NCBI GenBank assembly: GCA_041657885.1
Contig: JBBABB010000001.1
Coordinates: forward strand, 129,094-193,093
Length of the DNA stretch: 64,000 nt
Origin: Minisyncoccota bacterium
GTDB lineage: Bacteria; Patescibacteriota; Minisyncoccia; Phycocordibacterales; UBA9973
Reading direction: 5' to 3'
Position numbers and translations under genes: made by a program
Notes under the pieces: model-generated
The model's database searches: none
What the model was told of the DNA's origin: nothing
What the model saw: only the letters and a program-made list of their open reading frames with translations
Part shown: piece by piece, positions 641 to 62,200 of the stretch
How positions within the stretch are numbered: the first letter of the stretch is position 1
Layout: each line of letters opens with the position of its first letter

Positions 641-744
641 AACTAAATTTAAAAATGGCTCAAAAGCCCCTTCAATAAGACTATTCAGAGATACGCCATG
701 ATAAGACTATTTGGAATTTTTTTCCTGTGGTATAATAAAAAGAC

Positions 745-1311
745 ATGGAAAATTTTAAATTTATACTGTCTTCGATTTTAATTGTAGTTTTATTAGGGTT
801 TGCTGGTTATTGGGCGTTTTCTACTATTGAATCAGGGAGTACTCATGTTGATAGTCAGAAACAAAAAGAACTGGAACAAGAAAATAAAAACCTGACAAAA
901 GAAGTGACTGACCTCAAAAAAGAAATTGGTCTTTTACAAGCCGACAAAGAGCAAGCTCTGGCTGATCAAGTACAGGCAAACCTTGAAGCTGAAGCAATTA
1001 AAATACCAGTTGCTACCACTCTTACTCCAGCAAAACCTACGGTTTCAAAAAATCAAAGTTTAATAAATGAATTACAAAAACTTGTTGATGGTAAAATTTA
1101 CCTTAAATTGAAATCTCAAGGCCCTGCTGTTGGAACAGTTCAAAAGTTTTTAAATATTTATAACAAAACTTCCAACAAAATAGATAATGATTATGGGGCA
1201 AGTACAAAAACTACTGTCTTAAATTTTCAAAAAGCTCAGGGTTTAACAGCAGATGGAGAAACGGGACCTAGTACATATAGTAAAATGATCAGCTGGCTCA
1301 AGAGTCATTAA
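745..1311 (+). CDS. Membrane-anchored coiled-coil protein with C-terminal peptidoglycan-binding (PG_binding_1-like) domain
   Basis: N-terminal TM segment, KE-rich coiled coil, and C-terminal GPAVGTVQKFLN...GLTADGETGPSTY resembling the PG-binding domain. TGGTATAAT lies 8 nt upstream of the ATG. Confidence 0.5.
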   Translation: MENFKFILSSILIVVLLGFAGYWAFSTIESGSTHVDSQKQKELEQENKNLTKEVTDLKKEIGLLQADKEQALADQVQANLEAEAIKIPVATTLTPAKPTVSKNQSLINELQKLVDGKIYLKLKSQGPAVGTVQKFLNIYNKTSNKIDNDYGASTKTTVLNFQKAQGLTADGETGPSTYSKMISWLKSH

Positions 1312-7780: not shown

Positions 7781-8395
7781 TTATTTTAATTCTTTGTAAT
7801 ATCCTGGTAAGTAAGAAATTTCTTTGAGAGGAAGGAGTCGTAAGTATGCTCTGCCTGTCATTAATTTACGAGGTAATATTCCCCAGACACGAGAATCAGA
7901 GCTTTTATTCCTGTTATCTCCCATTACAAAGAATTCACCTTCTCCTGTTTTATAAGAAGTGGTTGTATTAAATTGCTCATCTATATATGGTTCTTTTAAT
8001 GTAAAGCCATTTGGATTTTCCTTGTTTATGATAATTACTGTGCCATTATTTATTGATATTTCTTCATTTGGCATGCCGATAATTCTTTTTATAAAGAATC
8101 TTTTTGGGTTATTTGGGTAACGGAAAACGATAACATCACCACGATGGGGATTACCAATTATATAAGATAGTTCATCAATTATTAAATATTCTCCATCATG
8201 GAAAGTAGGGAACATTGATTCTCCACTCACTACAAACGGCTGAGCGATAAACATTCTTATTGGAATAACTATAATAAGTGCAATGATTGCAAACTTAAAA
8301 AGATCCCAAGCACTCTCAAGTCCTTTTTTGAGTTTTGTTTTTACTGGAGTGTCAACGTTACTAATTTGGTTATTATCTTTTTCCATATAACTCAT
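7781..8395 (-). CDS. lepB: Signal peptidase I
   Basis: GESMFPTF and GDNRNKSSDSR motifs, N-terminal TM. Confidence 0.85.
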   Translation of the reverse strand: MSYMEKDNNQISNVDTPVKTKLKKGLESAWDLFKFAIIALIIVIPIRMFIAQPFVVSGESMFPTFHDGEYLIIDELSYIIGNPHRGDVIVFRYPNNPKRFFIKRIIGMPNEEISINNGTVIIINKENPNGFTLKEPYIDEQFNTTTSYKTGEGEFFVMGDNRNKSSDSRVWGILPRKLMTGRAYLRLLPLKEISYLPGYYKELK

Positions 8396-8469: not shown

Positions 8470-8587
8470 AGCCAGAGTCTGGAATAGTCCTCTCAGAGGG
8501 TACGAAAATTTTTTGCTAAAAATTTTCTCGGTTCTCGCGCCGTCGCGCTCCAAAGCCCCTCTGATAGGACTATTCCAGACTCTGGCT
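8470..8587. repeat. MITE-like structured repeat (family A, copy 1) with about 30-bp terminal inverted repeats
   Basis: agccagagtctggaatagtcctctcagaggg ... cccctctgataggactattccagactctggct. Internal hairpins (aaaattttttgctaaaaatttt; gcgccgtcgcgc). Shares its core with 25990..26084, 27088..27184 and 61021..61115. Confidence 0.7.
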
Positions 8588-8595
8588 TTCTGTGG

Positions 8596-8601
8596 TATTA
8601 T
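8596..8601 (+). promoter_or_regulatory. -10 box (TGTGGTATTAT) 6 nt upstream of pth ATG
   Basis: Motif TGnGGTATTAT-gaaaat-ATG. Confidence 0.4.
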
Positions 8602-8607
8602 GAAAAT

Positions 8608-9195
8608 ATGATGTTAATTGTTGGATTAGGAAATCCAGGAGAAGAATATAAAATTTCGCGACATAATACGGGACAAATAATTGTTGAAAATATTGCAAGT
8701 AGTAATGATTTTTCTGAATGGAAAAATAATATGAAATTAAAATCTCTTTGTGCGAAAGGTGAGATTGGAAAAGAAAAATTTGATTTTATACTTCCTGAAA
8801 CTTTTATGAATAATTCAGGAAATGCAGTGGTTCAGCTTATTGATAATCCTAAAAAGCTCAGAAATTTGATTGTGATTTATGATGATATAGATTTACCCTT
8901 TGGTAATTTGAAGATTTCTTTTAATCGTAGTTCGGGTGGACACAATGGACTTGAATCAGTAATAAAGAAAATTAAGTCAAAGAAATTTATTAGAATTCGT
9001 ATTGGAATTTCGCCACTAACTCCCTCGGGAAAATTACGAAAGCCAAAAGGAGAGAAGGCAGTGTTGAAGTTCTTGCTCGGAAAGTATAAGGAAGATGAAT
9101 TAAAAGAATTAAAAAAGATTTCAAAAACGGTGGCAGAAATCATTATGGTGATTTCTGCCGAAGGAAAAGAAAAAGCGATGAGCGTCTATAATTAA
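8608..9195 (+). CDS. pth: Peptidyl-tRNA hydrolase
   Basis: MMLIVGLGNPGEEY...RHNTG N-terminus. Confidence 0.85.
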   Translation: MMLIVGLGNPGEEYKISRHNTGQIIVENIASSNDFSEWKNNMKLKSLCAKGEIGKEKFDFILPETFMNNSGNAVVQLIDNPKKLRNLIVIYDDIDLPFGNLKISFNRSSGGHNGLESVIKKIKSKKFIRIRIGISPLTPSGKLRKPKGEKAVLKFLLGKYKEDELKELKKISKTVAEIIMVISAEGKEKAMSVYN

Positions 9196-10490: not shown

Positions 10491-10515
10491 CAGATAGGGG
10501 CTTAGCCCCTATCTG
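10491..10515. repeat. REP-like 25-bp perfect palindrome cagataggggcttagcccctatctg (copy 1, upstream of RAYT)
   Basis: Perfect inverted repeat. Copies at 10731..10755 and 11236..11260. Confidence 0.8.
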
Positions 10516-10544: not shown

Positions 10545-11249
10545 ATGAGCATAAGAAAACAACCTTTAGTAACAGGGGAAATGTATCATATTTACAATCG
10601 CGGGGTAGACAAGCGAGATATTTTTTCAGATAAAAATGACATTTATCGTTTTATTGAAAGTATTAAAGAATTTAATAGAATAGAAAAAATAGACAGTCTT
10701 GCAAATCTAAGAAAAATAAAATCAAATTCTCAGATAGGGGCTAAGCCCCTATCTGAAGGACCGTTAGTAGAGATTATAGGATATTGCCTTAATCCTAACC
10801 ACTTTCATTTTATATTAAGACAGTCAAATGATAATGGAATCACTAAATTTATGCATAAACTTCTAGGGGGATATACATCTTATTTTAATATTAAAAATTC
10901 TAGATCAGGGTCTCTATTTCAAGGAACTTTTAAATCACAAACTATAACTAATGAAGATTATTTTAATAAGTTAATAGGTTATGTTAACAAAAACTATCAA
11001 ATTCACAGTATTCCAGAAAATAAAAATGATTTAGTTTTTTCGGGGGATTATGAATATGAAAATAATAAATTCAATATTATTTCTAAAAAAGAAGGGGAAA
11101 ATATTTTAGAGGTTTTTGGAGGTGTAAAAAAATTTAAAAAACATTGTGATGAAATAGTTTCTATTGTTAGAGAGGAAAGAGGTAAAAAATCTTTACTTGA
11201 AGATGAAGATTTGAATGTAATTATAGAAAGTCTCCCAGATAGGGGCTAA
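10545..11249 (+). CDS. REP-associated tyrosine transposase (RAYT; IS200-like HuH-Y1 transposase, COG1943 family)
   Basis: MYHIYNRGVDKRDIF...NPNHFHFIL (HuH) ...GGYTSYFN...SGSLFQGTFKS...YVNKNYQ matches the Y1_Tnp/RayT pattern. Flanked by REP palindromes. TATAAT 6 nt upstream of the ATG. Confidence 0.8.
   Translation: MSIRKQPLVTGEMYHIYNRGVDKRDIFSDKNDIYRFIESIKEFNRIEKIDSLANLRKIKSNSQIGAKPLSEGPLVEIIGYCLNPNHFHFILRQSNDNGITKFMHKLLGGYTSYFNIKNSRSGSLFQGTFKSQTITNEDYFNKLIGYVNKNYQIHSIPENKNDLVFSGDYEYENNKFNIISKKEGENILEVFGGVKKFKKHCDEIVSIVREERGKKSLLEDEDLNVIIESLPDRG
10731..10755. repeat. REP palindrome copy 2, in frame inside the RAYT ORF (encodes QIGAKPLSE)
   Basis: Same 25-mer (one central base differs), codon-aligned. 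Confidence 0.8.
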
Positions 11250-12306: not shown

Positions 12307-14760
12307 ATGGCTAAAGAAAAAGAAGAAGAAATAAAAGATAAACATATTAACGTTGTTTCTGTGGACATAAGCACAGAGATGAAAGAATCGTTCATAGATT
12401 ATGCTATGTCAGTTATTACTGACCGTGCGCTTCCTGATGTTCGTGATGGATTAAAGCCAGTTCATAGACGTATTTTATATGCTATGTATGAAATGGGGTT
12501 AACACACCAAGGACGCTTTCGCAAAAGTGCGGCCGTAGTCGGAGATGTGCTCGGGAAATATCATCCACATGGAGATGTCGCAGTTTATGACTCTATGGTG
12601 AACATGGCCCAAGATTTTTCTTATCGTTATCCTTTAATTCATGGTCAAGGAAACTTTGGTTCTATAGATGGCGATGGAGCTGCTGCGATGCGTTATACAG
12701 AAGCTAAAATGTCCAAGGTTTCATCTCTATTACTTTTAAATCTAGAAAAGGAAACTGTAGATTTCCGACCAAATTACGACCAGACCCGCAAAGAGCCAAT
12801 CGTTTTGCCAACTGCCGTGCCAAGTTTGATTTTAAATGGCACTCTCGGTATTGCCGTTGGAATGGCAACTAATATACCACCACATAATTTATCTGAAGTT
12901 ATAGATGCGACTGTTCACTTGATAGACAACAAAGATGCTACAACTGAAGACCTGATGGAATTTATTAAAGGACCGGATTTTCCAGTCGGTGGTGTCGTTT
13001 ATGGTCAGGCAGATTTACTTCATGCTTATTCTACTGGACGCGGAGGAGTAGTTACTCGTGGTGAAGCGGAGATAGTTGAGCAAAAGAGTGAAACTTTTCA
13101 AATAATAATTACCTCAATCCCATATCGTGTAAACAAATCCGCGCTTATTGAATCAATCGCTCTTCTTATTCAAGAGAAAAAACTTGAAGGGATAAAAGGA
13201 CTTCGCGATGAATCAACCAAAGATATTCGCGTAGTTATTGACCTCAAGAGTGGAGTTTTCCCACAAAAAGTTTTAAATTATATTTACAAGCATACTCAAC
13301 TAGAGCAGTCATTTAATTTCAATATTGTGGCATTAGTTGATGGAGTTCCCCAGACCTTATCGCTCAAAAGTTTGCTTAGTGAATTTATTTCCCACCGCGA
13401 GATTGTGGTTCGTCGTCGAACTGAATATGATTTAAGAAAAGCCACAGAAAGAGAACATATACTTTTGGGACTCAAGAAAGCACTTGACCATATAGATAGG
13501 GTTATTTCTGTTATTCGAGCATCAAAAGATACAATAGTGGCTAAATTAAATTTGATGAAAGAGTTTAAGTTTTCTGAAATACAAGCAATTGCAATTCTTG
13601 AAATGAAACTTCAGAAGTTGGCAGGGCTTGAGCGTAAAAATGTAGAACTTGAATTAAAAGAAAAACAAGAATTAATCAAAGAATTAGAAGCTTTACTTGC
13701 AAGCCCCAAAAAAATGATGACTGTTATTTCAGATGAACTCAAAGATATAAAAGAAAAATACAGTGATGTTAGACGTACTCGTATTATAAAAGGAGGGGTA
13801 AAAGCAATTAACGAAGAAGATCTTATTCCAGAAAAAGAATCGGTTCTAGTATTTACCAAGGGTGGCTATGTCAAGCGAACAGACCCATCTGAATATCATA
13901 CACAGAAACGTGGTGGTGTAGGGGTCATAGACATAGAACCAAAAGAAGAAGATTTTGTCACAATGCTAATATCGGCAAATACTCATAGTGATTTATTATT
14001 CTTCACTAATTTGGGCAAAGCATATCAGATAAAGATGTATGATATTCCAGAAGGAAAACGTGCGACAAAAGGTAAGTCCATAATGAATTTCATTTCTTTA
14101 AGTGCTGATGAAAAAGTGACTTCTATCTTACCGATAGATAAAGAAACAAAAAAGATAATAGAAAATTTAATGATGGTCACTAAAATGGGCATAGCTAAAA
14201 AAGTCGGAGCGGAAAGCTTTAAAGATGTTCGTAGAAGCGGTTTAATTGCGATTAAACTTGATAAGGAAGATGAGTTACAAGCAGTTCTTGCCGTAGCAAA
14301 AGGGGATGATGTTGCGCTCGCGACAACTTTAGGGCAATCTATCAGATTTAAAGAAACAGACGTGAGAGAAATGGGACGTGGAGCAGGAGGTGTCAGAGCT
14401 ATTAAGTTAGGCAAAGGTGATTTTGTTATAGGAGTGGATAGGGTGCCTCGCGGAGAAATCAAACTTTCTATTCTTACTTTGAGCTCAAATGGTTTTGGTA
14501 AAAAAACTAATATAAAGGAATATAAGACCCAAAAACGGGGAGGTTCTGGTATCAAAACGGCGAAAGTCACCCCAAAAACAGGCAAGCTAATAGTGGCAAA
14601 AATAGTTGGGGAGGAAAATGAAATTATTGCAGTGTCTCAAAAAGGGCAAGTAATTCGAGTAAGTTTGAGTTCTATTCCTACTTCTGGCCGTCAGACTCAA
14701 GGAGTAACTGTGATGAAGTTAAGAGGTGGGGACAATATTGCATCAATTACGTGTTTGTAA
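12307..14760 (+). CDS. gyrA: DNA gyrase subunit A
   Basis: [30 protein letters not shown]; the GyrA C-terminal repeat motif (Q.RGG.G) occurs several times. Confidence 0.95.
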
Positions 14761-15880: not shown

Positions 15881-15909
15881 GAATAGGGGATATTAGATTA
15901 TAAAATTTG

Positions 15910-15943
15910 TTACAATAAATCCACAGGGGTGGATTTATTGTAA
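15910..15943. repeat. Perfect 14-bp-arm palindrome ttacaataaatcca-cagggg-tggatttattgtaa downstream of PaaX-like gene
   Basis: Inverted repeat seen in the sequence. Confidence 0.7.
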
Positions 15944-16012
15944 CAGGGAAATAAAAAAAGGGAGGTTTGTTGATAAAAGTTTATACACATTGCTTCTTTT
16001 TTTAATTGCATA

Positions 16013-21821: not shown

Positions 21822-21942
21822 GATATTTAGTTTTTAATGAATATTTTATTTTGCTTAGATTATATCATTATTATATATAAAAGTCAAGGGGGCTAAAAAT
21901 TAGTTCAACAAGTAAGTGCAACACTTTCACTAAACAATAAAA

Positions 21943-21965
21943 ACGACCCTATAAGGGTCGTTTTT
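21943..21965. terminator. Bidirectional terminator hairpin acgaccct-ataa-gggtcgt flanked by A5/T5
   Basis: Lies immediately 3' of the minus-strand small ORF 21978..22052. Confidence 0.55.
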
Positions 21966-21977
21966 ATTGTTTTTTCT

Positions 21978-22052: not shown

Positions 22053-22402
22053 ATTATTAATTAATTTAATAGTAATTAAATGGAGAGATAAAAAGACTAA
22101 TTAGTATCTACCATATCTTTTGAGTATAAACTAAATAAGTAAAAAAAGACAGCAAATAAATCTGAGGAAATATATTTTTGTGACCCTAGGGGGTTGGAAT
22201 TGAAATCAGATTGTGGAGAATATAAGGGGATTTAAGAAATTGAGTATAAATTCAGACTATTGACTTATATTATTAGTAGTTGTATAAATATGATATAAAA
22301 CTAGCTCTTTAACAATAGGTTTCCTTTTCGTCGCCAGACACAAGGTTTCAATACTTTGTGCCTGGCGATGATGAACATTTCTAGGTCTATACTAATGTTG
22401 GT

Positions 22403-25130: not shown

Positions 25131-25203
25131 GCGCGGTTAGCTCAGTTGGTAGAGCGTTCCCTTGACGTGGGAAAGGTCATAGGTTCAAATCCTATACCGC
25201 GTA
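25131..25203 (+). tRNA. tRNA-Val (anticodon GAC)
   Basis: GCGCGGT acceptor, D-arm GCTCAGTTGGTAGAGC, anticodon loop TTGACGT, T-arm ATAGG-TTCAAAT-CCTAT. Confidence 0.9.
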
Positions 25204-25205
25204 CT

Positions 25206-25967
25206 ATGCAAAATACACAAATAATTATTTTAGCAGCGGGGAAAAGTAAAAGAATGGAATCAGATGAGCCCAAGGCACTTGCCATGCTTCGTGGTAAACC
25301 ATTTTTGCAACATATTTTAGACACGCTGTCGCATTTAAATTTACCCATTAAACCGGTTATAGTTGTTGGTCATAAAAAGGAACGTATTTTTGAGGTAATA
25401 GGGCGTGATTATAATTATGCTCACCAAGAAGAACAACTTGGAACAGGTCATGCAGTTATGTCTGCTAAAAGTTCTACTCACCCAGACCACAAAATAGTTG
25501 TTGTCCTTTCTAACGACCAGCCATTGATTTCAAAAGAAACAATTCTAAAAATAATTGAAACTCATAAAAATAATAATGCTGTTATTACATTGGGGACTGT
25601 AGTATTACCTGATTTTAAAGATTGGAGAGCAGGGGCATATTACTTAGGCAGAATTGTTAGAAATGAAAATAATAAGGTTGTTGGTATTATTGAGTATAAA
25701 GATGCAAGTGAAAAAGAAAGAGAAATAAAAGAAATAAACTGTGCTATGTATGCTTTTGATTCAGAGTGGCTTTGGGAAAATATAGATAAAATAAAAAATC
25801 AAAATGTAGCTAATGAATATTACTTAACGGATTTAGTTAAATTAGCAAGTGAGGAAGGGAAGATAATAGAAGCTGTTCAATTAAAAAATATAATGGAACT
25901 TTTCCAACCAAATTCAAAACAAGAATTAGAAATCCTTGAAGGAATACTAGCTAATCAAAATCTGTAA
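25206..25967 (+). CDS. Sugar-phosphate nucleotidyltransferase (GlmU N-terminal domain-like)
   Basis: [39 protein letters not shown] matches the GlmU/NTP_transferase N-terminus. Start moved to 25206 to clear tRNA-Val. Confidence 0.6.
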
Positions 25968-25989
25968 ATAATAAAATCAAAACGAAAAC

Positions 25990-26084
25990 AAATAGTCTTA
26001 TCAAAGGGGCTTTGGAGCGCGTCGGCGCGAGAACTGAGCAAATTTTTAGCAAAAAATTTGAGTACCCTTTGAGAAGAGCTATTT
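25990..26084. repeat. MITE-like repeat family A, copy 2 (inverted orientation)
   Basis: Reverse complement matches the core of 8470..8587; sits between convergent genes. Confidence 0.7.
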
Positions 26085-26102
26085 GTTGTAGTTTTGTGTA
26101 AT

Positions 26103-27029
26103 TTATTTATTTTTATGTATCCAAATGTAGACGTCTTCGAGGGCTTTGACTGCGTCGCCAGCGGCAATATTATTTTGGTGGTATCTACCATTCGTACAAT
26201 CACCCGCGGCCCATATACCAGGGACTGATGTCATTTGCGTCATTGGGTCTACTACAATTTTACCAATTTTATCCATCTCAACGACATTTTTTACAAAATC
26301 AACATTTGGTGTTTGCCCGATTTCTACGAAGATACCCGTTGTTGGAATTGTACTTTCAACTCCTGTAATTTTATCTTTATAAGTTAGAGAACTCACAAAC
26401 TTATCACCATCTACTCTTATTATTTCTGCATTTGTTATTGCTTTAAATTTAGGATTTTCAAAAATTTTCTTAATGGTTATTTCATCGGCTCTGAATTCCG
26501 CACTTCGGTGTATTAATGTTACGCTTTTACAATAGGCGAGGAGTTGAGCCGATGTTTCAAACGCAGCATTGCCCCCTCCTATAACAAGTACATCTTGGTC
26601 TGCAAATAAAGGGCCATCACATGACGCACAATAAGTAATGCCTTTATTTTCAAACTTGTCAGCATTTATAGCAACGAGCTTTCGTCTACCACTACCTGTC
26701 GCAATAAGAACAGCTCGTGAAGTAAATTCTTTCCCTGACTCAGATTTTATTGTAAATATTTTATTGCTTTGAATAATAGAAATAATTTTTTCACTTTCAA
26801 TAATATCTAAATATGATCCCTTATAATAAAGAACATGTTTTTTTAAATTTAAAGCAAGATCTATCCCCGAAATTTCAGGTGTCCCAATCCAGTTATATAT
26901 AAGCTCTGAGACTATAGACTGTCCCCCAAATTCATTGGTGATAATAGCAGTTTTTAGTTGTTTGCGAGCAGAATATACTGTAGCTGCAGTGCCTGCTGGC
27001 CCTCCACCTAATATAATTAAATCGTACAT
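26103..27029 (-). CDS. trxB: Thioredoxin reductase
   Basis: YDLIILGGGPAGTAA (FAD), CASCDG redox-active disulfide, GGGNAAFE (NADPH). Confidence 0.9.
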   Translation of the reverse strand: MYDLIILGGGPAGTAATVYSARKQLKTAIITNEFGGQSIVSELIYNWIGTPEISGIDLALNLKKHVLYYKGSYLDIIESEKIISIIQSNKIFTIKSESGKEFTSRAVLIATGSGRRKLVAINADKFENKGITYCASCDGPLFADQDVLVIGGGNAAFETSAQLLAYCKSVTLIHRSAEFRADEITIKKIFENPKFKAITNAEIIRVDGDKFVSSLTYKDKITGVESTIPTTGIFVEIGQTPNVDFVKNVVEMDKIGKIVVDPMTQMTSVPGIWAAGDCTNGRYHQNNIAAGDAVKALEDVYIWIHKNK

Positions 27030-27087
27030 AGTAGTTATTTTATACTAAAAAATCAAAAATTCATAATAAAAAAATAGGGTCGTCCAT

Positions 27088-27184
27088 AAAATAGCTCTTC
27101 TCAAAGGGTACGCAAATTTTTTACTAAAAATTTGCTCGGTTCTCGCTCCGTCGAGCTCCAAAGCCCCTTTGATAAGACTATTTT
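27088..27184. repeat. MITE-like repeat family A, copy 3
   Basis: aaaatagctcttctcaaagggtac...ctcgctccgtcgagctccaaagcccctttgataagactatttt. Confidence 0.7.
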
Positions 27185-27196
27185 ATTTCCTCCCTC

Positions 27197-29695: not shown

Positions 29696-30082
29696 TTATG
29701 AAAAAATTTTAAGATATTTTCTCTCCTGCCTCTCCATTATACTACTATGTTCGAAACCTTTCAAATGTAACATTCCGTGGATAACCAAGTATTTTAAAAA
29801 TTGAGGATAAGACATCTCAAAAAGTAAGGCGTCCTTTTTTACCTTGACGGGGTCAATGGTAATTTCCCCTGACATTTTTGAAAGTGGAAAAGAAAGAATG
29901 TTTGTTGTTTCATTTTTTCCTCTGTATTTTTGATTGATTTGTTTTTGTTTTAAAGAAGAGAGAAAACTTATTCCGAGCTCGTATTTTTCTCCTAGGATTT
30001 TATTTTTAATAGATACAAAAGGCAAGCTTGGAAGCTTGCCTTTTGTATAATTTTTAATTGTACAAAAACCAGTGTCTGACAT
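29696..30082 (-). CDS. ybeY: rRNA maturation RNase YbeY
   Basis: HGMLHLKGFEH zinc-binding motif. Confidence 0.85.
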   Translation of the reverse strand: MSDTGFCTIKNYTKGKLPSLPFVSIKNKILGEKYELGISFLSSLKQKQINQKYRGKNETTNILSFPLSKMSGEITIDPVKVKKDALLFEMSYPQFLKYLVIHGMLHLKGFEHSSIMERQERKYLKIFS

Positions 30083-37347: not shown

Positions 37348-39219
37348 ATGGAAATTAGAAATATAGCAATAATCGCCCACGTGGACCATGGAAAAACCAC
37401 TTTGACTGACCAGATGATGAAGCAATGCGGAATGGTGAAAGAAGGGGTTACCATGGATTCAAACGCTCTTGAACTTGAGCGTGGTATTACTATATATTCC
37501 AAAAACACTTCAGTAATTTATAAAGGAAAAAAAATAAATATTGTAGATACTCCAGGCCACGCGGACTTCGGTTCTGAAGTTGAGCGTGTTCTTCGCGCGA
37601 TTGATTCTGTGCTTCTACTTGTAGATGCGCAAGAAGGTCCAATGCCTCAAACTCGCTTTGTTTTGAAAAAGTCCCTTGAGTTAGGACTTAAACCGATTGT
37701 TGTAATAAATAAAATAGATAAGCCAGCCTCAAACCCAGCTCGCGTTCATGATGAGATACTTGAACTTTTCTTGGAGCTTGGAGCTACTCAAGAACAAATT
37801 GATTTCAAATATTTATACGCTATAAGTCGCCAAGGAATAGCAAAATTAAAACTTGAAGATGAATCCAAAGATTTAACTCCTTTATTTGATCTAATACTTT
37901 CTGAAGTTAAAGAAGCATCTGTCGATAAAAACGCTCCTTTTCGGGCGCAAGTTTTTAATCTTGGCTATGATAACTTTTTGGGGCGTTTGGCTATCGTTCG
38001 CGCTTATGCTGGGTCTATTAAAACTAGCTCTCAAATTATAGTAAAAGATACTGTTGGTAATTCTCGTAATGCTCGCATTTCTAAAATATTTACTTTCCAG
38101 GGGATAGATAGAAAAGAAGTAAGCGTATTAAATACTGGAGATATCGCTATTATCGCTGGAATTCCCGATGTCTATATTGGAGAAACAATTTGTGATGATA
38201 TAAATACGCAAGCTCTTCCCTCTATTGATATAGATGAACCAACAATTTCCTTAAATTTTTTAGTAAATGATTCTCCTTTTGCAGGTCGTGAAGGTAAGTA
38301 TGTGACGGGTAGACAAATAAGAGAGCGTCTCGAAAAAGAACTTGAAATGAACGTTGGTCTTCGAATCAACTTTGATGTTCCAGATGAAGAATTAGGAAAA
38401 GAAGCCCGCCCGAACGACGCAGTCGGGCAGGGATTTCTTGTCTACGGACGTGGTGAATTACATATTGCAGTACTACTAGAAAATATGCGTCGTGAAGGAT
38501 ATGAGCTCCAAGTTTCTCAGCCCCACGTAATTATAAAACCTGCCCGCCCTCACGAAAGTTCGGGAGCAGGCGGGGAAGAAAAAGTAACTATGTTGGAGCC
38601 GTATGAAGAAGCAACCATTGATGTCAGGAGTGAATTTTCTGGTTCAGTTATAGAAAAATTAACTGCGCGCCGAGGAATTATAACAAATATGCATGAGAAA
38701 GAAGGAATTGTTCGAATGTTGATAGAGATACCCACTCGAGGATTGCTCGGATATCGTGGACAATTTATTGTAGATACTAAAGGTGAAGGAATACTTGCTT
38801 CAAGATTTATTGGATTTAAAAATTATGCAGGAGAAATAAAAAAGCGAGATGTGGGGTCTATGACTTCAATGATTAATGGTAAAGTTGTTGCATTCTCACT
38901 TTGGACTCTACAAGAAAGAGGAACTCTGTATGTAGAGCATGGAGATGAAGTATATGAAGGAATGGTTATTGGAAATGTTATAAAAGGAGATGAATTGACG
39001 GTTAATCCAACAAAAGGGAAACAACTTTCCAATATGCGTTCTTCAGGCACTGATGAAGCAATCAATGTTAAGCCACCATATAAGTTGTCTATTGAGCGAG
39101 GACTTGAGGTTATGGCTGAAGATGAATATCTTGAAATTACACCCCAAAATACTCGCTTACGCAAGAAGCTTCTAACGGAACAAGACCGATCAAAATCAAA
39201 AACAGCTAAAAATAAGTGA
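37348..39219 (+). CDS. typA: Translational GTPase TypA/BipA, carrying a 12-aa in-frame insertion ([12 protein letters not shown])
   Basis: [35 protein letters not shown]. Insertion at 38539..38576 relative to E. coli/B. subtilis BipA. Confidence 0.9.
38539..38576. repeat. GC-rich palindromic element (family E) inserted in frame in typA
   Basis: cctgcccgccctcacgaaagttcgggagcaggcgggga; identical 38-mer at 43646..43683 in mnmA. Confidence 0.8.
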
Positions 39220-39322: not shown

Positions 39323-40354
39323 ATGGCTAATACAATCACATTTAAACCAAAACAAGTTACTAAAAGAATGCTTTCAGGTCTATCACCACGCGCTCATGAG
39401 GTGATTATTAATCGTTTCGGTATTACCGATAATGCAGAACGTAAAACACTAGAAGCAATAGGTCAGAAATATGGCATTACTCGTGAGCGTGTTCGTCAGA
39501 TAGAAAATACAGCTCTGGTTTTTATTCGTAAATCAGAATTTTTCAAGAACGAGAAAGAAGTTTTTGAAGAATTAAAGAAATTAGTGCATACCTTAGGAGC
39601 TATTATTTCGGAACAAGATTTACTCAATCATTTATCTAAAGATAAATTAACTCAGAATCATATAAATTTATTTCTAACTCTAGGGAATGATTTTACTAAA
39701 CACAAAGAAGATGAGAATTTTAAAACTCGTTGGAGTGTTGATGCTGACATAGCAGAACAGATTCACAAGTCATTGAAAAATATTTATGAAGGTCTTTCGG
39801 ATGATGAGTTAATTTCTGAAGGAGAACTTATCGCTCGATTTCTTGAAGAAGTCAAAGATTTATCTGAACAATATAAAAATGAAGAAATCGCTCGCCGCTG
39901 GCTTTCAATGTCCAAGAAGATTAGTAAGAATCCATTAGGAGAATGGGGAAAGTCCACATCTTCTAGTATCAAGACCCGTGGAGTAAAAGATTATGCATTT
40001 TTGATGATGCGTAAACATGGTAGCCCAATGCACTTCAGAGAAGTAGCAAAAGCCGTAGCTAGTACTTTTAATAAGAAATGTCACGTAGCGACTTGTCATA
40101 ATGAACTTATAAAAGACCCTAGGTTTGTCCTTGTAGGAAGAGGAATTTATGCTTTATCGGAATGGGGGTATAAGACAGGAGTAGTTCGCGACGTTATCAA
40201 AGAACTCATAAAGAAAAATGGTCCTATGTTAAAAAATGATATTATTGACCAGGTTATGAAAGAAAGATATTTAAAGAAAAATACCATTTTGGTTAATCTA
40301 CAGAATTCAAAATATTTCAAGAAAAATAAGACTGGACAATACACAATAGTTTAA
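39323..40354 (+). CDS. Sigma-70 region-4-like HTH domain protein with large C-terminal domain
   Basis: LSPRAHEVIINRFGITDNAERKTLEAIGQKYGITRERVRQIENTAL resembles sigma-70 region 4. Confidence 0.45.
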   Translation: MANTITFKPKQVTKRMLSGLSPRAHEVIINRFGITDNAERKTLEAIGQKYGITRERVRQIENTALVFIRKSEFFKNEKEVFEELKKLVHTLGAIISEQDLLNHLSKDKLTQNHINLFLTLGNDFTKHKEDENFKTRWSVDADIAEQIHKSLKNIYEGLSDDELISEGELIARFLEEVKDLSEQYKNEEIARRWLSMSKKISKNPLGEWGKSTSSSIKTRGVKDYAFLMMRKHGSPMHFREVAKAVASTFNKKCHVATCHNELIKDPRFVLVGRGIYALSEWGYKTGVVRDVIKELIKKNGPMLKNDIIDQVMKERYLKKNTILVNLQNSKYFKKNKTGQYTIV

Positions 40355-40361
40355 AAGAAGG

Positions 40362-40398
40362 AAAACCTCTCCGATTATGGTCGGAGAGGTTTTCTTTT
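40362..40398 (+). terminator. Rho-independent terminator (13-bp stem aaaacctctccga...tcggagaggtttt + T-run)
   Basis: Perfect 13-bp stem, 6-nt loop. Confidence 0.75.
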
Positions 40399-40517
40399 GT
40401 AGATATGGTATAATATGTCATATGCAGAGAGGTGTAATTGCAAATATTATTATAGTAATAATTGGTATTATTTTTATAGCCATATTAATCGGATTTTTTA
40501 ATAAACCATAATATTAT

Positions 40518-42742: not shown

Positions 42743-44083
42743 ATGGTGATTAAAAATAATAAAACAGTATTTATTGGGGTTTCCCCGAATAGAAGAGTAC
42801 TTCCTACGGGGCAGGCAGGCGGAGTTAAGCCTACTGTTTTTGTTGGTGTTTCAGGAGGTGTTGACAGTTCGGTTTCCGCGGCCCTTTTAAAAGAGGCTAC
42901 ACCAAAAAATTTTAAAAAATTTTTTGGTCGCCCGACCCCGAAGGGGTTTAGAGGATACAATGTAGTTGGGGTTTTTATTCGTACTTGGACACCGGATTTT
43001 ATAGAATGTACTTGGAAAAATGAGCGTCGTGATGCTATGCGAGTATGTGCGCATCTTAATATTCCTTTTTTAGAATGTGATGCTGAAAAAGAATATAAAA
43101 AAAGTGTGGTAGATTATATGATTGAAGAATATAAAAAAGGTAATACTCCAAACCCCGATGTAATGTGTAATCGAGAAGTTAAATTTGGAGTGTTTTGGAA
43201 ATTTGCACAATCTCACGGGGCAGATTTTATTGCCACGGGGCACTATGCACGCAAATCTCCCCTCCTTGTGGAGGAGGGGGTAGGGGGTGGTGATCCAAAA
43301 GAATTACCACCTCGCCCTGCGGGCACTCCTCCTCGAAAAGGAGGAGAGGAAATGCATAAATTACTAAAAGGTATTGACTCATCCAAAGACCAAGTTTATT
43401 TTTTGTGGACTTTAACGCAGGAAGATTTGTCTCATATTTTATTTCCCATTGGACATTTAAAAAAGACAGAAGTTCGTAAACTTGCAAAGAAATATAATCT
43501 TCCAACTGCGACGAAAAAAGACAGTCAGGGTATTTGTTTTCTGGGGCTACTTGATATGAAGGATTTCTTGAGACACTATATTAAATCAGAAAAAGGGAAT
43601 GTTTTGCTTGCCCGTCACGATAGTGAATTAGGGAATGAAAAGGGACCTGCCCGCCCTCACGAAAGTTCGGGAGCAGGCGGGGAAATAATTGGAAATCATA
43701 ATGGCGCGGTATTTTTCACTCTTGGAGAAAGACATGGATTTACTCTTAATAAACATTCCGAAAATGATGAACCTTTATATGTAATATCAAAAGATATAAA
43801 AAATAACACCATTACTGTTTCCCCTAGGCCTTGCCTAGGGGAAGAAGACGAACCACATAGGACCGTCCTATGTAATAATGCAAACTGGATTTCAGGTATA
43901 CCAGAAAAAGATAAGGTGTATATAGCTCAAATTCGTTATCATGGAGAGTTTTTAGATTGTAAAGTGGTCGTCACAGGTCAGACCTGTGAAATAACTTTTG
44001 ATAAAAATGTAATTGTTGATAAAGGACAATCAATAGTTATTTATGATGGGGATATTTGCCTAGGGGGTGGTGTGGTAATTTAA
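42743..44083 (+). CDS. mnmA: tRNA-specific 2-thiouridylase MnmA with at least 5 in-frame GC-rich insertions
   Basis: VGVSGGVDSSVSA (PP-loop), NPDVMCN, TGHYAR, KDQVYFL, QGICFLG. 446 aa versus about 360 aa for orthologs. Confidence 0.8.
   Translation: MVIKNNKTVFIGVSPNRRVLPTGQAGGVKPTVFVGVSGGVDSSVSAALLKEATPKNFKKFFGRPTPKGFRGYNVVGVFIRTWTPDFIECTWKNERRDAMRVCAHLNIPFLECDAEKEYKKSVVDYMIEEYKKGNTPNPDVMCNREVKFGVFWKFAQSHGADFIATGHYARKSPLLVEEGVGGGDPKELPPRPAGTPPRKGGEEMHKLLKGIDSSKDQVYFLWTLTQEDLSHILFPIGHLKKTEVRKLAKKYNLPTATKKDSQGICFLGLLDMKDFLRHYIKSEKGNVLLARHDSELGNEKGPARPHESSGAGGEIIGNHNGAVFFTLGERHGFTLNKHSENDEPLYVISKDIKNNTITVSPRPCLGEEDEPHRTVLCNNANWISGIPEKDKVYIAQIRYHGEFLDCKVVVTGQTCEITFDKNVIVDKGQSIVIYDGDICLGGGVVI
43646..43683. 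repeat. Family E element, identical copy inserted in frame in mnmA
   Basis: The same 38-mer as in typA. Confidence 0.8.
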
Positions 44084-49226: not shown

Positions 49227-49229
49227 GCT

Positions 49230-49302
49230 TGCCCCCACACCTATATTTTTATAGTTTTCAACGCAGGTTTTAACCTGCAATAAAAATATAGGTGTGGGGG
49301 CT
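49230..49302. repeat. Long hairpin element (22-bp arms gcccccacacctatatttttat / ataaaaatataggtgtgggggc with nested hairpin) flanked by cttgc direct repeats
   Basis: Perfect inverted repeat immediately 3' of infA. Confidence 0.6.
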
Positions 49303-49400
49303 TGCTTATTTTATTAAAGTAGTGTATTATGAAAGGATATATGCTTACGTAAAAATACAGGGTGATAGCCCTATATTTTTCTTTAGCATTTAGATAAAGC

Positions 49401-53314: not shown

Positions 53315-53319
53315 TAAGA

Positions 53320-53347
53320 AAAACTCCCCGTTCCGGGGAGTTTTTTG
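53320..53347 (+). terminator. Rho-independent terminator (ctcccc-gttcc-ggggag + T6) ending the ribosomal operon
   Basis: Stem-loop + tttttt after rpsI. Confidence 0.75.
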
Positions 53348-54368: not shown

Positions 54369-54370
54369 TA

Positions 54371-54455
54371 GTCGTTCCGCAGGATTATTAAAATTATTCG
54401 CGTTTTACCCAGAGTACTGGGTCCTACGCGACTCATAATTTAAACAATCCTGCTT
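54371..54455. repeat. About 90-bp multi-stem structured repeat (family D, copy 1) 3' of grpE
   Basis: gtcgttccgcaggattattaaaattattcgcgttttacccagagtactgggtcctacgcgactc...aatcctgc; near-identical copy at 57162..57248. Confidence 0.7.
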
Positions 54456-57161: not shown

Positions 57162-57248
57162 AGTCGTTTCGCAGGATTATTAAAATTATTCGCGCTTTAC
57201 CCAGAGTACTGGGGCCTACGCGACTCATAATTTCAACAAATCCTGCTC
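57162..57248. repeat. Family D structured repeat copy 2, between dnaK and dnaJ
   Basis: About 90% identical to 54371..54455. Confidence 0.7.
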
Positions 57249-58369: not shown

Positions 58370-58413
58370 CAGACAGTGCCTAAAGCGCTATGTAGCGCTT
58401 TAGGCACTGTCTG
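58370..58413 (+). terminator. Long perfect hairpin (about 19-bp stem cagacagtgcctaaagcgc...gcgctttaggcactgtctg) after dnaJ
   Basis: Perfect inverted repeat; a weak T-tract follows. Confidence 0.55.
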
Positions 58414-59895: not shown

Positions 59896-59972
59896 ATAAT
59901 TAATAATTAATAATTAATAATTAATAATTAATAATTAATAATTAATAATTAATAATTAATAATTAATAATTA
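59896..59972. repeat. Heptanucleotide microsatellite (ataatta)x11 in the intergenic region
   Basis: Perfect tandem 7-mer repeats. Confidence 0.9.
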
Positions 59973-59998: not shown

Positions 59999-61015
59999 AT
60001 GAATACAAATTTAAACACATTAGAATTTATTCTAAAAAATTATAAGAACTTCAATGCTCGCGCAACGAAAGACGCGATGATTTCATATTGGCGTCATATT
60101 GAAAAAGGAGGCAAAATGTTTTGGGCTATGGGAGGAGCCATGTCTTCAGCTCAGCTTGGGATTACTCTTGCTCCAGCAATCAGGAATGGATTAATTTCAG
60201 GAATGTCTGTGACTGGGGCTAACCTTGAGGAGTCATTGTTCCGTCTCGTTGCCCACAAGAGCTACAAAGACTTTCCTGATTATAGATATTTTACAAAAGA
60301 AGATGATACAAAGATTTTAGAAGACCGTATGCGACGTGTGACAGATACAAGTATTCCTGAAGACGAAGCATTTCGTGTTGTTGAAAAACAAATTGTTCCT
60401 ACATGGAAAAAAGCTACAGTAGATGGGACAAGAAAATTTTGGCATGAATACTTTTATGAACTTATCCAATCAATTGATAAGAGTAAACACGAAGGAAGAG
60501 CAGATGAATGTTGGTTGCTTGCTGCAGCAGAGAAAAATATTCCAATAGTGGTACCTGGTTATGAGGACTCAACATTTGGAAATATTTTTGCTTCTTATGT
60601 AAAGACCGGTGAATGTAGTGCAAATATTGCTAAATCGGGTGTTGAATACATGGTGGCATGGTACGATCAGTATCAAGATTTGTCTAAGGATAAAGGAGTT
60701 GGACTTTTTCAAATTGGTGGAGGAATTGCGGGTGATTTTCCAATTTGTGTTGTTCCTTCTATAAAATATGATTTAAAAAAAGAAGTAAAACCATGGGCTT
60801 ATTTCTGCCAGATTTCAGATTCTACAACTTCTTATGGTTCATATTCCGGAGCAACCCCAAATGAAAAAATTACTTGGGATAAGCTTACGAAAGACACTCC
60901 GATGTTCGTCATTGAATCAGATGCTACTATTGTTGCCCCACTTATACTTACGGCACTTCTTGAGTGTAAAGCAAATCCAGGTGGAGCTAATAAATTAATA
61001 GAACAAATGGGTTAG
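59999..61015 (+). CDS. Deoxyhypusine synthase-like protein (possible homospermidine synthase)
   Basis: FWAMGGAMSSAQLG...GMSVTGANLEESLF resembles the DHS family. Confidence 0.55.
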   Translation: MNTNLNTLEFILKNYKNFNARATKDAMISYWRHIEKGGKMFWAMGGAMSSAQLGITLAPAIRNGLISGMSVTGANLEESLFRLVAHKSYKDFPDYRYFTKEDDTKILEDRMRRVTDTSIPEDEAFRVVEKQIVPTWKKATVDGTRKFWHEYFYELIQSIDKSKHEGRADECWLLAAAEKNIPIVVPGYEDSTFGNIFASYVKTGECSANIAKSGVEYMVAWYDQYQDLSKDKGVGLFQIGGGIAGDFPICVVPSIKYDLKKEVKPWAYFCQISDSTTSYGSYSGATPNEKITWDKLTKDTPMFVIESDATIVAPLILTALLECKANPGGANKLIEQMG

Positions 61016-61020
61016 GTTTG

Positions 61021-61115
61021 AAATAGCTTTTCTCAGAGGGTACACCAATTTCTTGGTAGAAATTCGTTCAGTGTTCGCTCCGTCGAGCTCACAAGCCCCT
61101 CTGATAAAACTATTT
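61021..61115. repeat. MITE-like repeat family A, copy 4
   Basis: aaatagcttttctcagagggtac...gctccgtcgagctcacaagcccctctgataaaactattt. Confidence 0.7.
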
Positions 61116-61135
61116 CAGACCTAACCCTCAATACT

Positions 61136-62200
61136 ATGAAAGGTAATAAAGAAAAAAAGAAAATATTAGAAGAAAAAATTTCAAAGTTTAATCCCAGTGA
61201 TAGTGGAGCTCTTCATCATGGAATTTTTGGATTACCATTTAACCCTGAAGAATCAAGGGTTATTTTGGTTCCGGTGCCATGGGAATCCACAGCAACTTAT
61301 GGCGTTGGAACCGCCTTGGGACCAAAAGCAATTTTAGATGCATCGCAGCAAATTGATCTATATGACCCGATAAATCCCGATGGTTGGAAAGAGGGAATTG
61401 CTATGCAAGATATTCCTTCTAGTATTTTCTATAAAAATCAACAAGTTAGAGAAAAAATTTTAAAATATTTTGAAAAATATATTGAAAAAGATATAGATAA
61501 AGGATTACAAGATGAAATAAATGTAAGTTGTCTTGAGCTTAATGATTATGTTAAAGAAACCACCAGAAAATTTTTGGAAGATGATAAAATTGTCGGATTA
61601 GTTGGAGGGGACCACAGTGTAATTCTTGGATATCTGAAGGCGTTATCTAAAAAGTATAAAGATTTTGGAGTACTTCATATTGATGCCCATTGTGACTTAA
61701 GAAATGCTTATCTTGGACTTGAATATTCTCATGCCTCAATATTTTTTAATGCTTTAAAGATAAAAAATATTTCTAAATTAGTCCAAGTGGGAATTCGAGA
61801 TTTTAGTCATGCAGAAAATGATTTTATAAAGAAAGAAAAAAATAGAATATCTCTGTTCACAGATTATGAAATCAAAAAAGCAGTATTTTCAGGAGTAACT
61901 TTGAAAAAAAAGTTTGATGAAATTATTAAAAAACTTCCTAAGAATGTCTATATTTCTTTTGATGTTGATGGGTTAATGCCATATCTAAGCCCAAACACTG
62001 GCACGCCTGTCGTTGGTGGATTTACAATAGAAGAAATGGTTTTCCTATTTGAGGAAATGATAGCTTCAGGTAGAAAAATTATCGGTTTTGATTTGTGTGA
62101 AGTTGCTCCAGGAAAAGATGGCCAGTGGGACGGTAACGTCGGGGCAAGAATCTTGTATAAATTGTGTTTATTGACACTCAAAAGCCAAAAAATAAAATAA
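61136..62200 (+). CDS. speB: Agmatinase (ureohydrolase/arginase family)
   Basis: GGDHSVILGYL, LHIDAHCDL, SFDVDGLMP manganese-binding motifs. Confidence 0.75.
   Translation: MKGNKEKKKILEEKISKFNPSDSGALHHGIFGLPFNPEESRVILVPVPWESTATYGVGTALGPKAILDASQQIDLYDPINPDGWKEGIAMQDIPSSIFYKNQQVREKILKYFEKYIEKDIDKGLQDEINVSCLELNDYVKETTRKFLEDDKIVGLVGGDHSVILGYLKALSKKYKDFGVLHIDAHCDLRNAYLGLEYSHASIFFNALKIKNISKLVQVGIRDFSHAENDFIKKEKNRISLFTDYEIKKAVFSGVTLKKKFDEIIKKLPKNVYISFDVDGLMPYLSPNTGTPVVGGFTIEEMVFLFEEMIASGRKIIGFDLCEVAPGKDGQWDGNVGARILYKLCLLTLKSQKIK

Follow-up and report, generated by a model that had tools for sequence, protein, structure and literature searches.

The intergenic spacers of a 64,000-nt stretch of DNA from a Minisyncoccota bacterium (NCBI GenBank assembly GCA_041657885.1, contig JBBABB010000001.1, positions 129,094 to 193,093, hereafter the window) hold several copies of a repeat with long inverted ends, here called family A. 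The genomes of the candidate phyla radiation (CPR, or Patescibacteria) are tiny and gene-dense, with little repetitive DNA expected, and the locus raises the question of what such a repeat is and how it is kept. An initial annotation of the window described it as a novel family resembling miniature inverted-repeat transposable elements (MITEs), or else as a terminator or structured small-RNA module. This was followed up by comparing the window with related loci and genomes, labelled here by L-numbers (L004, L005 and so on). Family A is a previously undescribed palindromic family of a CPR clade (Paceibacteria/Nomurabacteria), similar to repetitive extragenic palindromes (REPs) and bacterial interspersed mosaic elements (BIMEs), and it is unusual in its covarying three-way-junction core, its fast-evolving arms, the absence of duplication at the target and its deep purifying selection. 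The MITE-like label captured the spirit of the element, but none of the strict readings (MITE, terminator, small RNA) passed on all the features tested. To the explanation that we prefer, a REP/BIME-like intergenic element acting as folded single-stranded DNA, we give roughly an even chance, its function and its copying enzyme being what we infer from the comparisons below.

Copies and Fold of Family A

A covariance model built from 83 relatives was used to scan the window. The four copies located by the initial annotation were recovered with 121–131 bits (E about 1e-30 to 1e-33; Table 1), and the rest of the 64 kb gave generic hairpins only, at 21 bits or less, so that the window holds exactly four intact copies. 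The limits first proposed for copy 1 are correct, including its 31-nt terminal inverted repeats, the arms being 97% complementary, whereas copies 2–4 each proved to be about 10 nt longer per side, where a locus-specific complementary arm extends the stem. The four copies show a mean column identity of 76% over an alignment of about 120 nt. Copy 1 folds with −69.7 kcal/mol, and it is 100% identical in L034 and L115, both from the same population as the window. All copies are intergenic, as first noted, with the left arm of copy 4 overlapping by 6 nt the stop codon (TAG) of the deoxyhypusine-synthase-like gene, and the element has no open reading frame (ORF) of its own. Pfam confirms the identities given to the flanking genes (Peptidase_S26 and Pept_tRNA_hydro; NTP_transferase and Pyr_redox_2; FtsZ; deoxyhypusine synthase and the arginase family).

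The alignment of 83 non-redundant copies defined a unit of about 117–125 nt with a conserved core of about 95 nt, running from AAATAG to CTATTT. The core ends are imperfect 20-nt inverted repeats, with the same imperfections in all copies, and between them lies a three-way junction carrying two hairpins, one rich in AU and the other in GC, in agreement with the two internal hairpins and the small, non-coding, multi-copy inverted-repeat family of the first description. From the outside to the inside, the core starts with a 6-bp foot (AAATAG/CTATTT), followed by a bulged C, 4 bp, a C-T mismatch and 8 bp (TCARAGGG/CCCTYTGA), both the bulge and the mismatch of this imperfect 12-bp inner stem being conserved. 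The apex consists of the invariant junction TAC, a 10-bp AU-rich hairpin (H1, an A-tract/T-tract palindrome with a T-N-N-T loop), a linker of about 9 nt, a 4-bp GC-rich hairpin (H2, with a CGNC loop) and a linker of about 8 nt ending in AAGC. The single-stranded linkers of the junction are conserved, and the loops are neither GNRA nor UNCG. Beyond the foot lie outer arms of 11–17 nt, often with a 3 × 3 internal loop in which TCC faces TTC, whose sequence is wholly different between copies and whose complementarity is kept. Conservation sets in abruptly, at matching places on the two sides (alignment columns 11/12 and 109/110).

Folding and covariation had been proposed as a check on the repeat. 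The folds of copies 1–4 proved much more stable than those of shuffled controls (z-scores of −12.3, −6.0, −7.8 and −9.3), and compensatory changes were strong in all the helices, affecting 24 of 36 pairs in the RNAalifold structure. In our own structure 91.4% of the cells were paired, compared to 76.5% in shuffles, none of the 500 shuffles reaching the observed value, and controls in which the partner was slid by 1–3 columns fell to 40–56% pairing; 28 of its 43 pairs vary on both sides. H2 appears as GCGC/GCGC, GCTC/GAGC, GGCT/AGCC, GTGT/ACAC or GCTT/AAGC, freely combined with several H1 variants. A sister family, B, has ends in common with family A and differs from it in the inner stem (GAAATAC/GTATTTC) and in the hairpin sequences, with one H1 fully GC-substituted, and still keeps the architecture of family A. 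The covariation, the H1 and H2 variants and the common fold of family B show that intrastrand pairing is what is conserved.

Table 1. Coordinates of the family A copies, their parts and the Y1 gene with its palindromes in the window.
Feature	Position	Strand	Context and remarks
Copy 1, full element	8470–8587	+	Divergent spacer between a signal-peptidase gene (7781–8395, −) and pth (8608–9195, +); 128.2 bits
Copy 1, outer and inner stem	8470–8500 / 8557–8587		
Copy 1, junction TAC	8501–8503		
Copy 1, hairpin H1	8504–8527		10 bp, loop TGCT
Copy 1, hairpin H2	8537–8548		GCGC/GCGC, loop CGTC
Copy 2, full, inverted	25979–26095	−	Convergent spacer between a nucleotidyltransferase gene (25146–25967, +) and trxB (26103–27029, −); 127.4 bits
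Copy 3, full	27078–27194	+	Between the ftsZ stop (27197) and the trxB start (27029), both genes −; 121.2 bits
Copy 4, full	61010–61126	+	Between a deoxyhypusine-synthase-like gene (59999–61015) and an agmatinase/arginase-family gene (61136–62200); 131.3 bits
Decayed remnant, two right-end fragments	658–690 and 700–712	+	Between a DEAD-box helicase gene and a PG_binding_1 gene
RAYT-like Y1/HUH gene, 234 aa	10545–11249	+	Two kilobases from copy 1
Y1 palindrome, upstream	10491–10515		
Y1 palindrome, in-frame in the ORF	10731–10755		
Y1 palindrome, across the stop codon	11236–11260		

Copies 2 and 3 form, over positions 25984–26084 and 27089–27189, a 101-nt inverted repeat (92% complementary) that brackets trxB, and recombination between them could invert this gene. 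The trxB-flanking copies of L005 and L085 are in direct orientation.

Conservation and Distribution

The conservation of individual copies was examined in the ftsZ-trxB region. Four-fold sites of both genes are only 32–49% identical between the window and L004, L005, L010 and L085, near the 35% expected at random from composition, and are thus saturated. In the orthologous spacer, the element core is nevertheless 81–96% identical to copy 3 (copies in L005, L010, L004, L085 and L063), and the arms of the copies in L005 and L010 are 86–95% identical, whereas paralogous copies inside the window reach only 72–94%. That orthologues remain alike where silent sites are saturated, and paralogues are less so, means that individual copies are inherited vertically and kept by purifying selection. 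Neither recent spread nor homogenisation inside a genome is enough by itself to explain this pattern.

With a two-anchor pattern, the element was located in 18 stretches from 11 GTDB representative genomes, labelled as Candidatus Nomurabacteria, Candidatus Paceibacterota, uncultured Candidatus Saccharibacteria or uncultured bacterium, and with a looser pattern in about 80 metagenome contigs. In total, about 100 further copies were collected from Nomurabacteria/Paceibacterota metagenome-assembled genomes (MAGs) and metagenomes. Several loci of 8–13 kb carry two or three copies each, so that family A is dense for such small genomes. The scan of the window with Rfam (4227 models) returned three tRNAs only at the gathering threshold, and a permissive scan of copy 1 gave noise only (E ≥ 0.19), without a match to any Rfam family; no description of such repeats in Patescibacteria was found in the literature. 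The initial annotation had named a known conserved terminator or REP of related genomes as an identity that would speak against its reading, and by this measure the conservation of the copies in relatives under purifying selection shifts the element towards a conserved REP-like one. Other identities were discarded: a phage origin, as viral and phage contigs contained no match to the element; the hammerhead and purine-riboswitch architectures, which did not fit when junction strands were compared by eye; and, by reasoning, a DNA-uptake sequence, the element being far too long and its stems covarying.

Strand Asymmetry and Relation to Transcription

The pairs of family A are nearly all Watson–Crick, and the few exceptions are unevenly distributed between the strands. 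After de-duplication, 62 A-C and 25 G-T pairs were counted as written (p = 9e-5, an optimistic value as the counted copies are partly related), and the complement strand folds better by 4.85 kcal/mol, as found in 81 of 83 copies. The A-C excess is equal in co-directional and antisense gene contexts, which excludes a tie between this asymmetry and the direction of transcription. The simplest reading of a strand asymmetry that ignores gene direction is that selection acts on the fold of one given strand, suggesting a single-stranded DNA form.

Neither the orientation nor the spacer type of the copies shows a bias. Relative to the neighbouring genes, 28 copies are tandem-same, 25 tandem-opposite, 9 convergent and 5 divergent, and the types of spacer match the background (divergent in 8/81 versus 77/531, p = 0.30), with no enrichment at gene 3′ ends in this comparison. 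Many copies lie 0–15 nt from a stop codon. No positional peak of −10-like hexamers was found upstream of either sense. In the 8 bases after the stem the mean is 3.0 T, most copies being without a T-run. Copy 1 is placed upstream of the promoter-like extended −10 motifs of both divergent genes, as read by eye. Together, these data argue against a terminator, a fixed-sense mRNA element and a self-transcribed small-RNA gene. The terminator module of the initial annotation is thus not supported, most copies having no T-run and occurring in tandem, convergent and divergent spacers at background proportions; nor is the free-standing small-RNA gene, given the lack of a promoter peak on either side, the roughly 50:50 orientation and the site of copy 1.

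The explanation that survives best after the preferred one is that of a structured RNA, either a cis-acting mRNA hairpin (for processing, stability or 3′-end formation) or a small RNA cut from read-through transcripts, with a protein bound to the junction. The covariation in all helices and the conserved junction nucleotides would suit it, and so would a strand richer in G than in C, G-U tolerant and of better folding energy, although this favoured strand is antisense to the flanking genes in around half of the copies, and the near-pure Watson–Crick pairing, the few wobbles, the loop types and the empty Rfam search are not those of such an RNA. Similarly, the closeness of many copies to stop codons, the replacement of the element by simple long hairpins at an orthologous site and the many long perfect hairpins in the spacers of this genome speak for a role in transcripts, but no promoter signal is found at a fixed distance on either side, around 10% of the copies are in divergent spacers, as in the background, and copy 1 precedes both promoter-like motifs read by eye. 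On balance we consider a structured RNA rather unlikely.

Three further observations concern the spacers themselves. The extended −10-like motifs cctgTGgTATAAT and ctgTGgTATTAT (window 725–745 and 8590–8610) are located only 6–9 nt before the downstream ATG, a spacing that suggests leaderless or very short-leader mRNAs. Unique, perfect intergenic hairpins of 12–21 bp, nearly pure Watson–Crick and several of them without a T-run, occur at 58371–58412, 21930–21974, 30013–30048 and 15908–15945, with more at 40347–40407, 53319–53345, 22329–22370 and 49227–49305; they may be the bidirectional 3′-end structures of this organism. Finally, the downstream element flank of L092, L029 and L077 contains, after a promoter-like motif, a highly conserved non-coding stretch (TAGTATAACTCCACATCTCGTTTGTCCCGACCCTGAAGTCG) that may be an RNA gene or a leader sequence.

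Turnover at Orthologous Spacers

The spacers orthologous to those of the window differ in state, from empty to replaced. Between the nucleotidyltransferase gene and trxB, the site is empty in L004 and L037 (4–6 nt, no hairpin), contains family A in L005 and L085 in an orientation opposite to that of copy 2, and is taken in L010 and L063 by other, unrelated palindromic families. The site occupied by the element in L095 shows simple hairpins in L064 and L087, not the same ones in the two. The orthologous site of copy 4 in L058 retains only the left half, the remainder being replaced by another palindromic family, and in L101 another palindromic family is nested within a truncated family A copy. 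The lepB/pth spacer of L118 has a different family (D, around 600–690), and a spacer common to L008, L029, L077 and L092 shows differing core subtypes at one site. Decay is seen in the helicase/PG-binding-protein spacer, where the two fragments of the window, taken from the start as right-end pieces, are genuine remnants with 82–89% identity to the right end of the element: the window keeps debris only, and L040 has an intact family B copy (497–613, +) and an intact family A copy (629–746, −).

The arms move together with the core. The arm subtypes GGTCGTCCAYR, GTTGTCCGTTG, AAAACTYCAAC, GGTTGAGCACG and GGTCAGGTTTG each appear repeatedly, in several gene contexts without homology to one another, and none of these five occurs without the core. 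Since arm subtypes recur in unrelated contexts, never without the core, and the empty site has no hairpin, the duplicating unit is the whole hairpin, arms included, and the arms evolve fast after duplication under a pairing constraint. Families A and B also occur as neighbours, 3–34 nt apart and each with its own arms, and the pairs were mutually inverted in ten cases out of ten (eight tail-to-tail and two head-to-head).

Several hallmarks of a transposon were not detected. A scan for target-site duplications in 90 copies (k = 2–8, boundary offsets −12 to +15) found an enrichment only of self-complementary k-mers within the arms, and none at the boundary or beyond it. Nor are the outermost ends conserved: conservation is limited to the subterminal part, the outer 11 nt of each arm being variable. 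No pair of such ends more than 70 nt apart, as in a longer partner, was present in about 0.86 Mb of related DNA, from which the autonomous partner with matching inverted repeats that the initial annotation proposed to look for is thus missing. Of the MITE-like label, therefore, the duplicative behaviour stands (sites present, absent or replaced, nesting and decay), and what fails is the target-site duplication, the constancy of the outermost ends and the partner.

A selfish MITE without a host role was weighed in the form of a DDE-type 95-nt element (AAATAG...CTATTT) that inserts into existing palindromic hairpins, such as terminator loops, and hence has variable complementary arms. This was suspected at first, the genome being rich in long perfect intergenic hairpins, and the sharp symmetric switch at columns 11/12 and 109/110, the imperfect inverted ends with the same imperfections in all copies and the simple hairpins of L064 and L087 at the element site of L095 would all fit it. 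However, none of the five tested arm subtypes was found as an empty hairpin, the same subtypes travel with the core between unrelated contexts, the empty site of L004 and L037 has no hairpin, and neighbouring A and B units each have their own arms, which dismisses insertion of the core into pre-existing terminator hairpins; moreover, neither target-site duplication nor autonomous partner was found and orthologous copies are conserved far above the neutral expectation, in such a way that we regard this explanation as quite improbable. An origin of the arms as inverted copies of the local flanks was also rejected, the arms of L095 being unrelated to the conserved flanks of L064 and L087. A double-stranded DNA site or architectural element with orientation-independent function and incidental duplication (for instance one to which gyrase or a nucleoid protein binds, a role proposed for E. 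coli BIMEs) is very improbable, as the compensatory swaps of both halves of small stems in the H2 variants imply intrastrand pairing, not a fixed duplex sequence, and a strand asymmetry of wobble pairs is not expected of a duplex, even if the unbiased orientation and spacer type, the spacer of copy 1, judged untranscribed, the A-tract/T-tract palindrome of H1 and the inverted A-B doublets resembling BIME mosaics agree with it.

Further palindromic families were seen in the same spacers of other genomes (L010 1885–2015; L063 around 725–870; L058 11782–11874; flanks in L029 and L053), one having the ends AAAATACTCTTTTTAAAAGCCC and another the core GTCCTCGGACGAGGGAGGACGAGGAGCCAGAC. A second conserved hairpin family, D, with a core resembling CGCGTTTTACCCAGAGTACTGGGTCCTACGCG and AT-rich arms, is present in the window at 54370–54447 and 57162–57239, flanking the PaaX-like/DnaK region, and also in L019, L051, L094, L101 and L118. 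It appears that several families of structured repeats use the intergenic spacers of this clade as common landing sites.

A Candidate Enzyme and the Weight of the Single-Strand Reading

In the explanation that we prefer, family A would work as a folded single DNA strand, the active one probably being the complement of the strand written for copy 1. Its copying would be carried out by a structure-specific enzyme of the HUH/Y1 type that leaves no duplication, and its retention would be due to a host or element-linked factor that reads the conserved junction.

The window contains a candidate for such an enzyme, a gene resembling those of the REP-associated tyrosine transposases (RAYTs; Table 1). 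Its product scores 29.5 bits on the Pfam model Y1_Tnp, above the cutoff of 23, and has 2642 homologues, the best 120 of them at 68–100% identity. The synteny of the gene (S1 protein, Y1, Lactamase_B_3, gyrA) is kept in L116 and L118. Given these homologues and the kept synteny, it behaves like a domesticated single-copy RAYT (cf. PMC5581495). We consider it doubtful that this candidate is in fact the enzyme that copies family A.

The gene has a palindrome of its own, CCAGATAG-stem-CTATCTGG, with three copies per gene in every genome examined (the window and L116–L120), the one inside the ORF encoding ..SQIGAKPLSE... The foot of this palindrome, AGATAG/CTATCT, is invariant and resembles the AAATAG/CTATTT of family A, and its apical stem co-varies between genomes (GGGC, TGGC, CGC), being near-identical among the three copies of each genome. 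As the gene has its own co-evolving palindrome, strict membership of family A as the cognate of this gene in a REPIN (a REP doublet forming a hairpin) is ruled out.

Several points have to be set against the single-strand reading. The case for a single-stranded DNA intermediate and for any enzyme is indirect. The hairpins fold equally as RNA, and most copies are in transcribed spacers, so that they may act at the RNA level instead. The p-value of the wobble asymmetry is optimistic, given the relatedness of the copies. The conservation at orthologous sites could be due in part to repeated re-insertion or gene conversion, considering the different core subtypes in the spacer of L008, L029, L077 and L092. 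No exact filled-versus-empty pair from near-identical strains was found, the look-up with the pth protein yielding the same population only, and the ends given here are thus provisional. Regarding the Y1 protein, it reaches only 27.7 bits on the NCBIfam model REP_Tyr_transpos, below the RAYT cutoff of 80, and sequence and profile searches against the PDB gave no significant match. The gene is flanked by a distinct palindrome that co-varies with it between genomes, and the covariance model found no family A copy beside it in the window or in four related loci (L116, L118, L119 and L120). Because family A never flanks the Y1 gene, the feature that defines REPIN-RAYT systems is lacking.

Comparison with Known Systems

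Family A shares with the REPs, REPINs and BIMEs of Proteobacteria its nature of short, non-coding extragenic palindromes in many copies, the inverted doublets, the absence of target-site duplication, a conserved foot beside the stem, and a long vertical persistence alongside a single-copy, syntenic Y1 gene. As in BIME mosaics, two types of unit are adjacent in alternating orientation (the inverted A-B pairs described above). REPs are defined by a 5′ GT(A/G)G tetranucleotide and a palindrome of variable composition (PMC3686654), whereas family A has ATAG instead of GTAG, in a foot that is paired and not single-stranded, and the stem beyond it is conserved and not variable. It also differs from a REPIN, which joins two REPs of 20–25 nt, in that its unit is one hairpin of about 117 nt containing a three-way junction, with ends that are not palindromes themselves. 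In REPIN-RAYT systems the dispersed repeat flanks the single-copy RAYT gene, with long vertical persistence alongside the syntenic Y1 gene (PMC5581495); here the Y1 gene is flanked by another palindrome, its protein is far from the characterised RAYTs, and the host belongs to the CPR.

Other families offer partial parallels. The enterobacterial repetitive intergenic consensus (ERIC) sequences and the Correia elements (NEMIS, Neisseria miniature insertion sequences) are, as generally known, imperfect intergenic palindromes of 100–155 bp present in both orientations, conserved across related species and capable of forming long hairpins in transcripts. In Correia elements the 26-bp terminal repeats are conserved, and a TA duplication is present. 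Family A, on the contrary, has variable termini, no detected duplication and a covarying three-way-junction core, and sequence similarity to these elements is not expected. To the classical DDE MITEs it is similar in being small, non-coding and multi-copy, in its inverted ends of 20–31 nt and in its presence/absence polymorphism, nesting and decay, but neither target-site duplication, conserved outermost ends nor parent insertion sequence was found, its internal hairpins covary, and its orthologous copies are under purifying selection. The palindrome-associated transposable elements (PATEs) derived from IS200/IS605 have hairpin-dependent, strand-specific activity and no target-site duplication, and the enzymology of a Y1 HUH protein would fit the strand asymmetry of family A; however, the two subterminal hairpins of PATEs, left and right, are unrelated to each other and long inverted ends are missing, whereas the ends of family A pair over at least 30 bp and its internal hairpins are unlike each other.

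Implications and Other Palindromes of the Window

Structured palindromic families fill a noticeable share of the short intergenic spacers of this clade, and family A stays constant across genomes saturated at silent sites, which makes it a test case for REP-like persistence through host benefit or self-propagation. Its covariation-supported structure model can be used for the annotation of such MAGs, and family A is a specific candidate for what the Y1/HUH protein of these organisms, conserved but uncharacterised, takes as its substrate. We put forward tentatively, as a proposal more likely wrong than right, that families A and B form a new class of host-maintained structured nucleic-acid module in the CPR, whose three-way-junction hairpin a specific protein would recognise on one strand, and which would be either the substrate of a domesticated HUH enzyme, in a long-term REPIN-RAYT-type partnership within genomes below 1 Mb, or a new class of non-coding RNA excised from transcripts, its sequence being kept for a role in the cell and not for selfish spread alone. 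If a cellular role is true, family A would be a lineage-specific regulatory or architectural device of organisms that are not yet culturable alone.

Two further repeats were noticed in the window. An identical 40-nt GC-rich palindrome (ACCTGCCCGCCCTCACGAAAGTTCGGGAGCAGGCGGGGAA) is found at 38538–38577 and 43645–43684, in-frame in the unrelated housekeeping genes for BipA/TypA and MnmA, with a weaker match at 12507–12546; it adds the same 13-residue peptide to both proteins, a situation reminiscent of the palindromic elements of Rickettsia, which are likewise in-frame. Shortly before the deoxyhypusine-synthase-like gene, positions 59898–59970 hold tandem repeats with a period of 14 nt (AATTAATAATTAAT).

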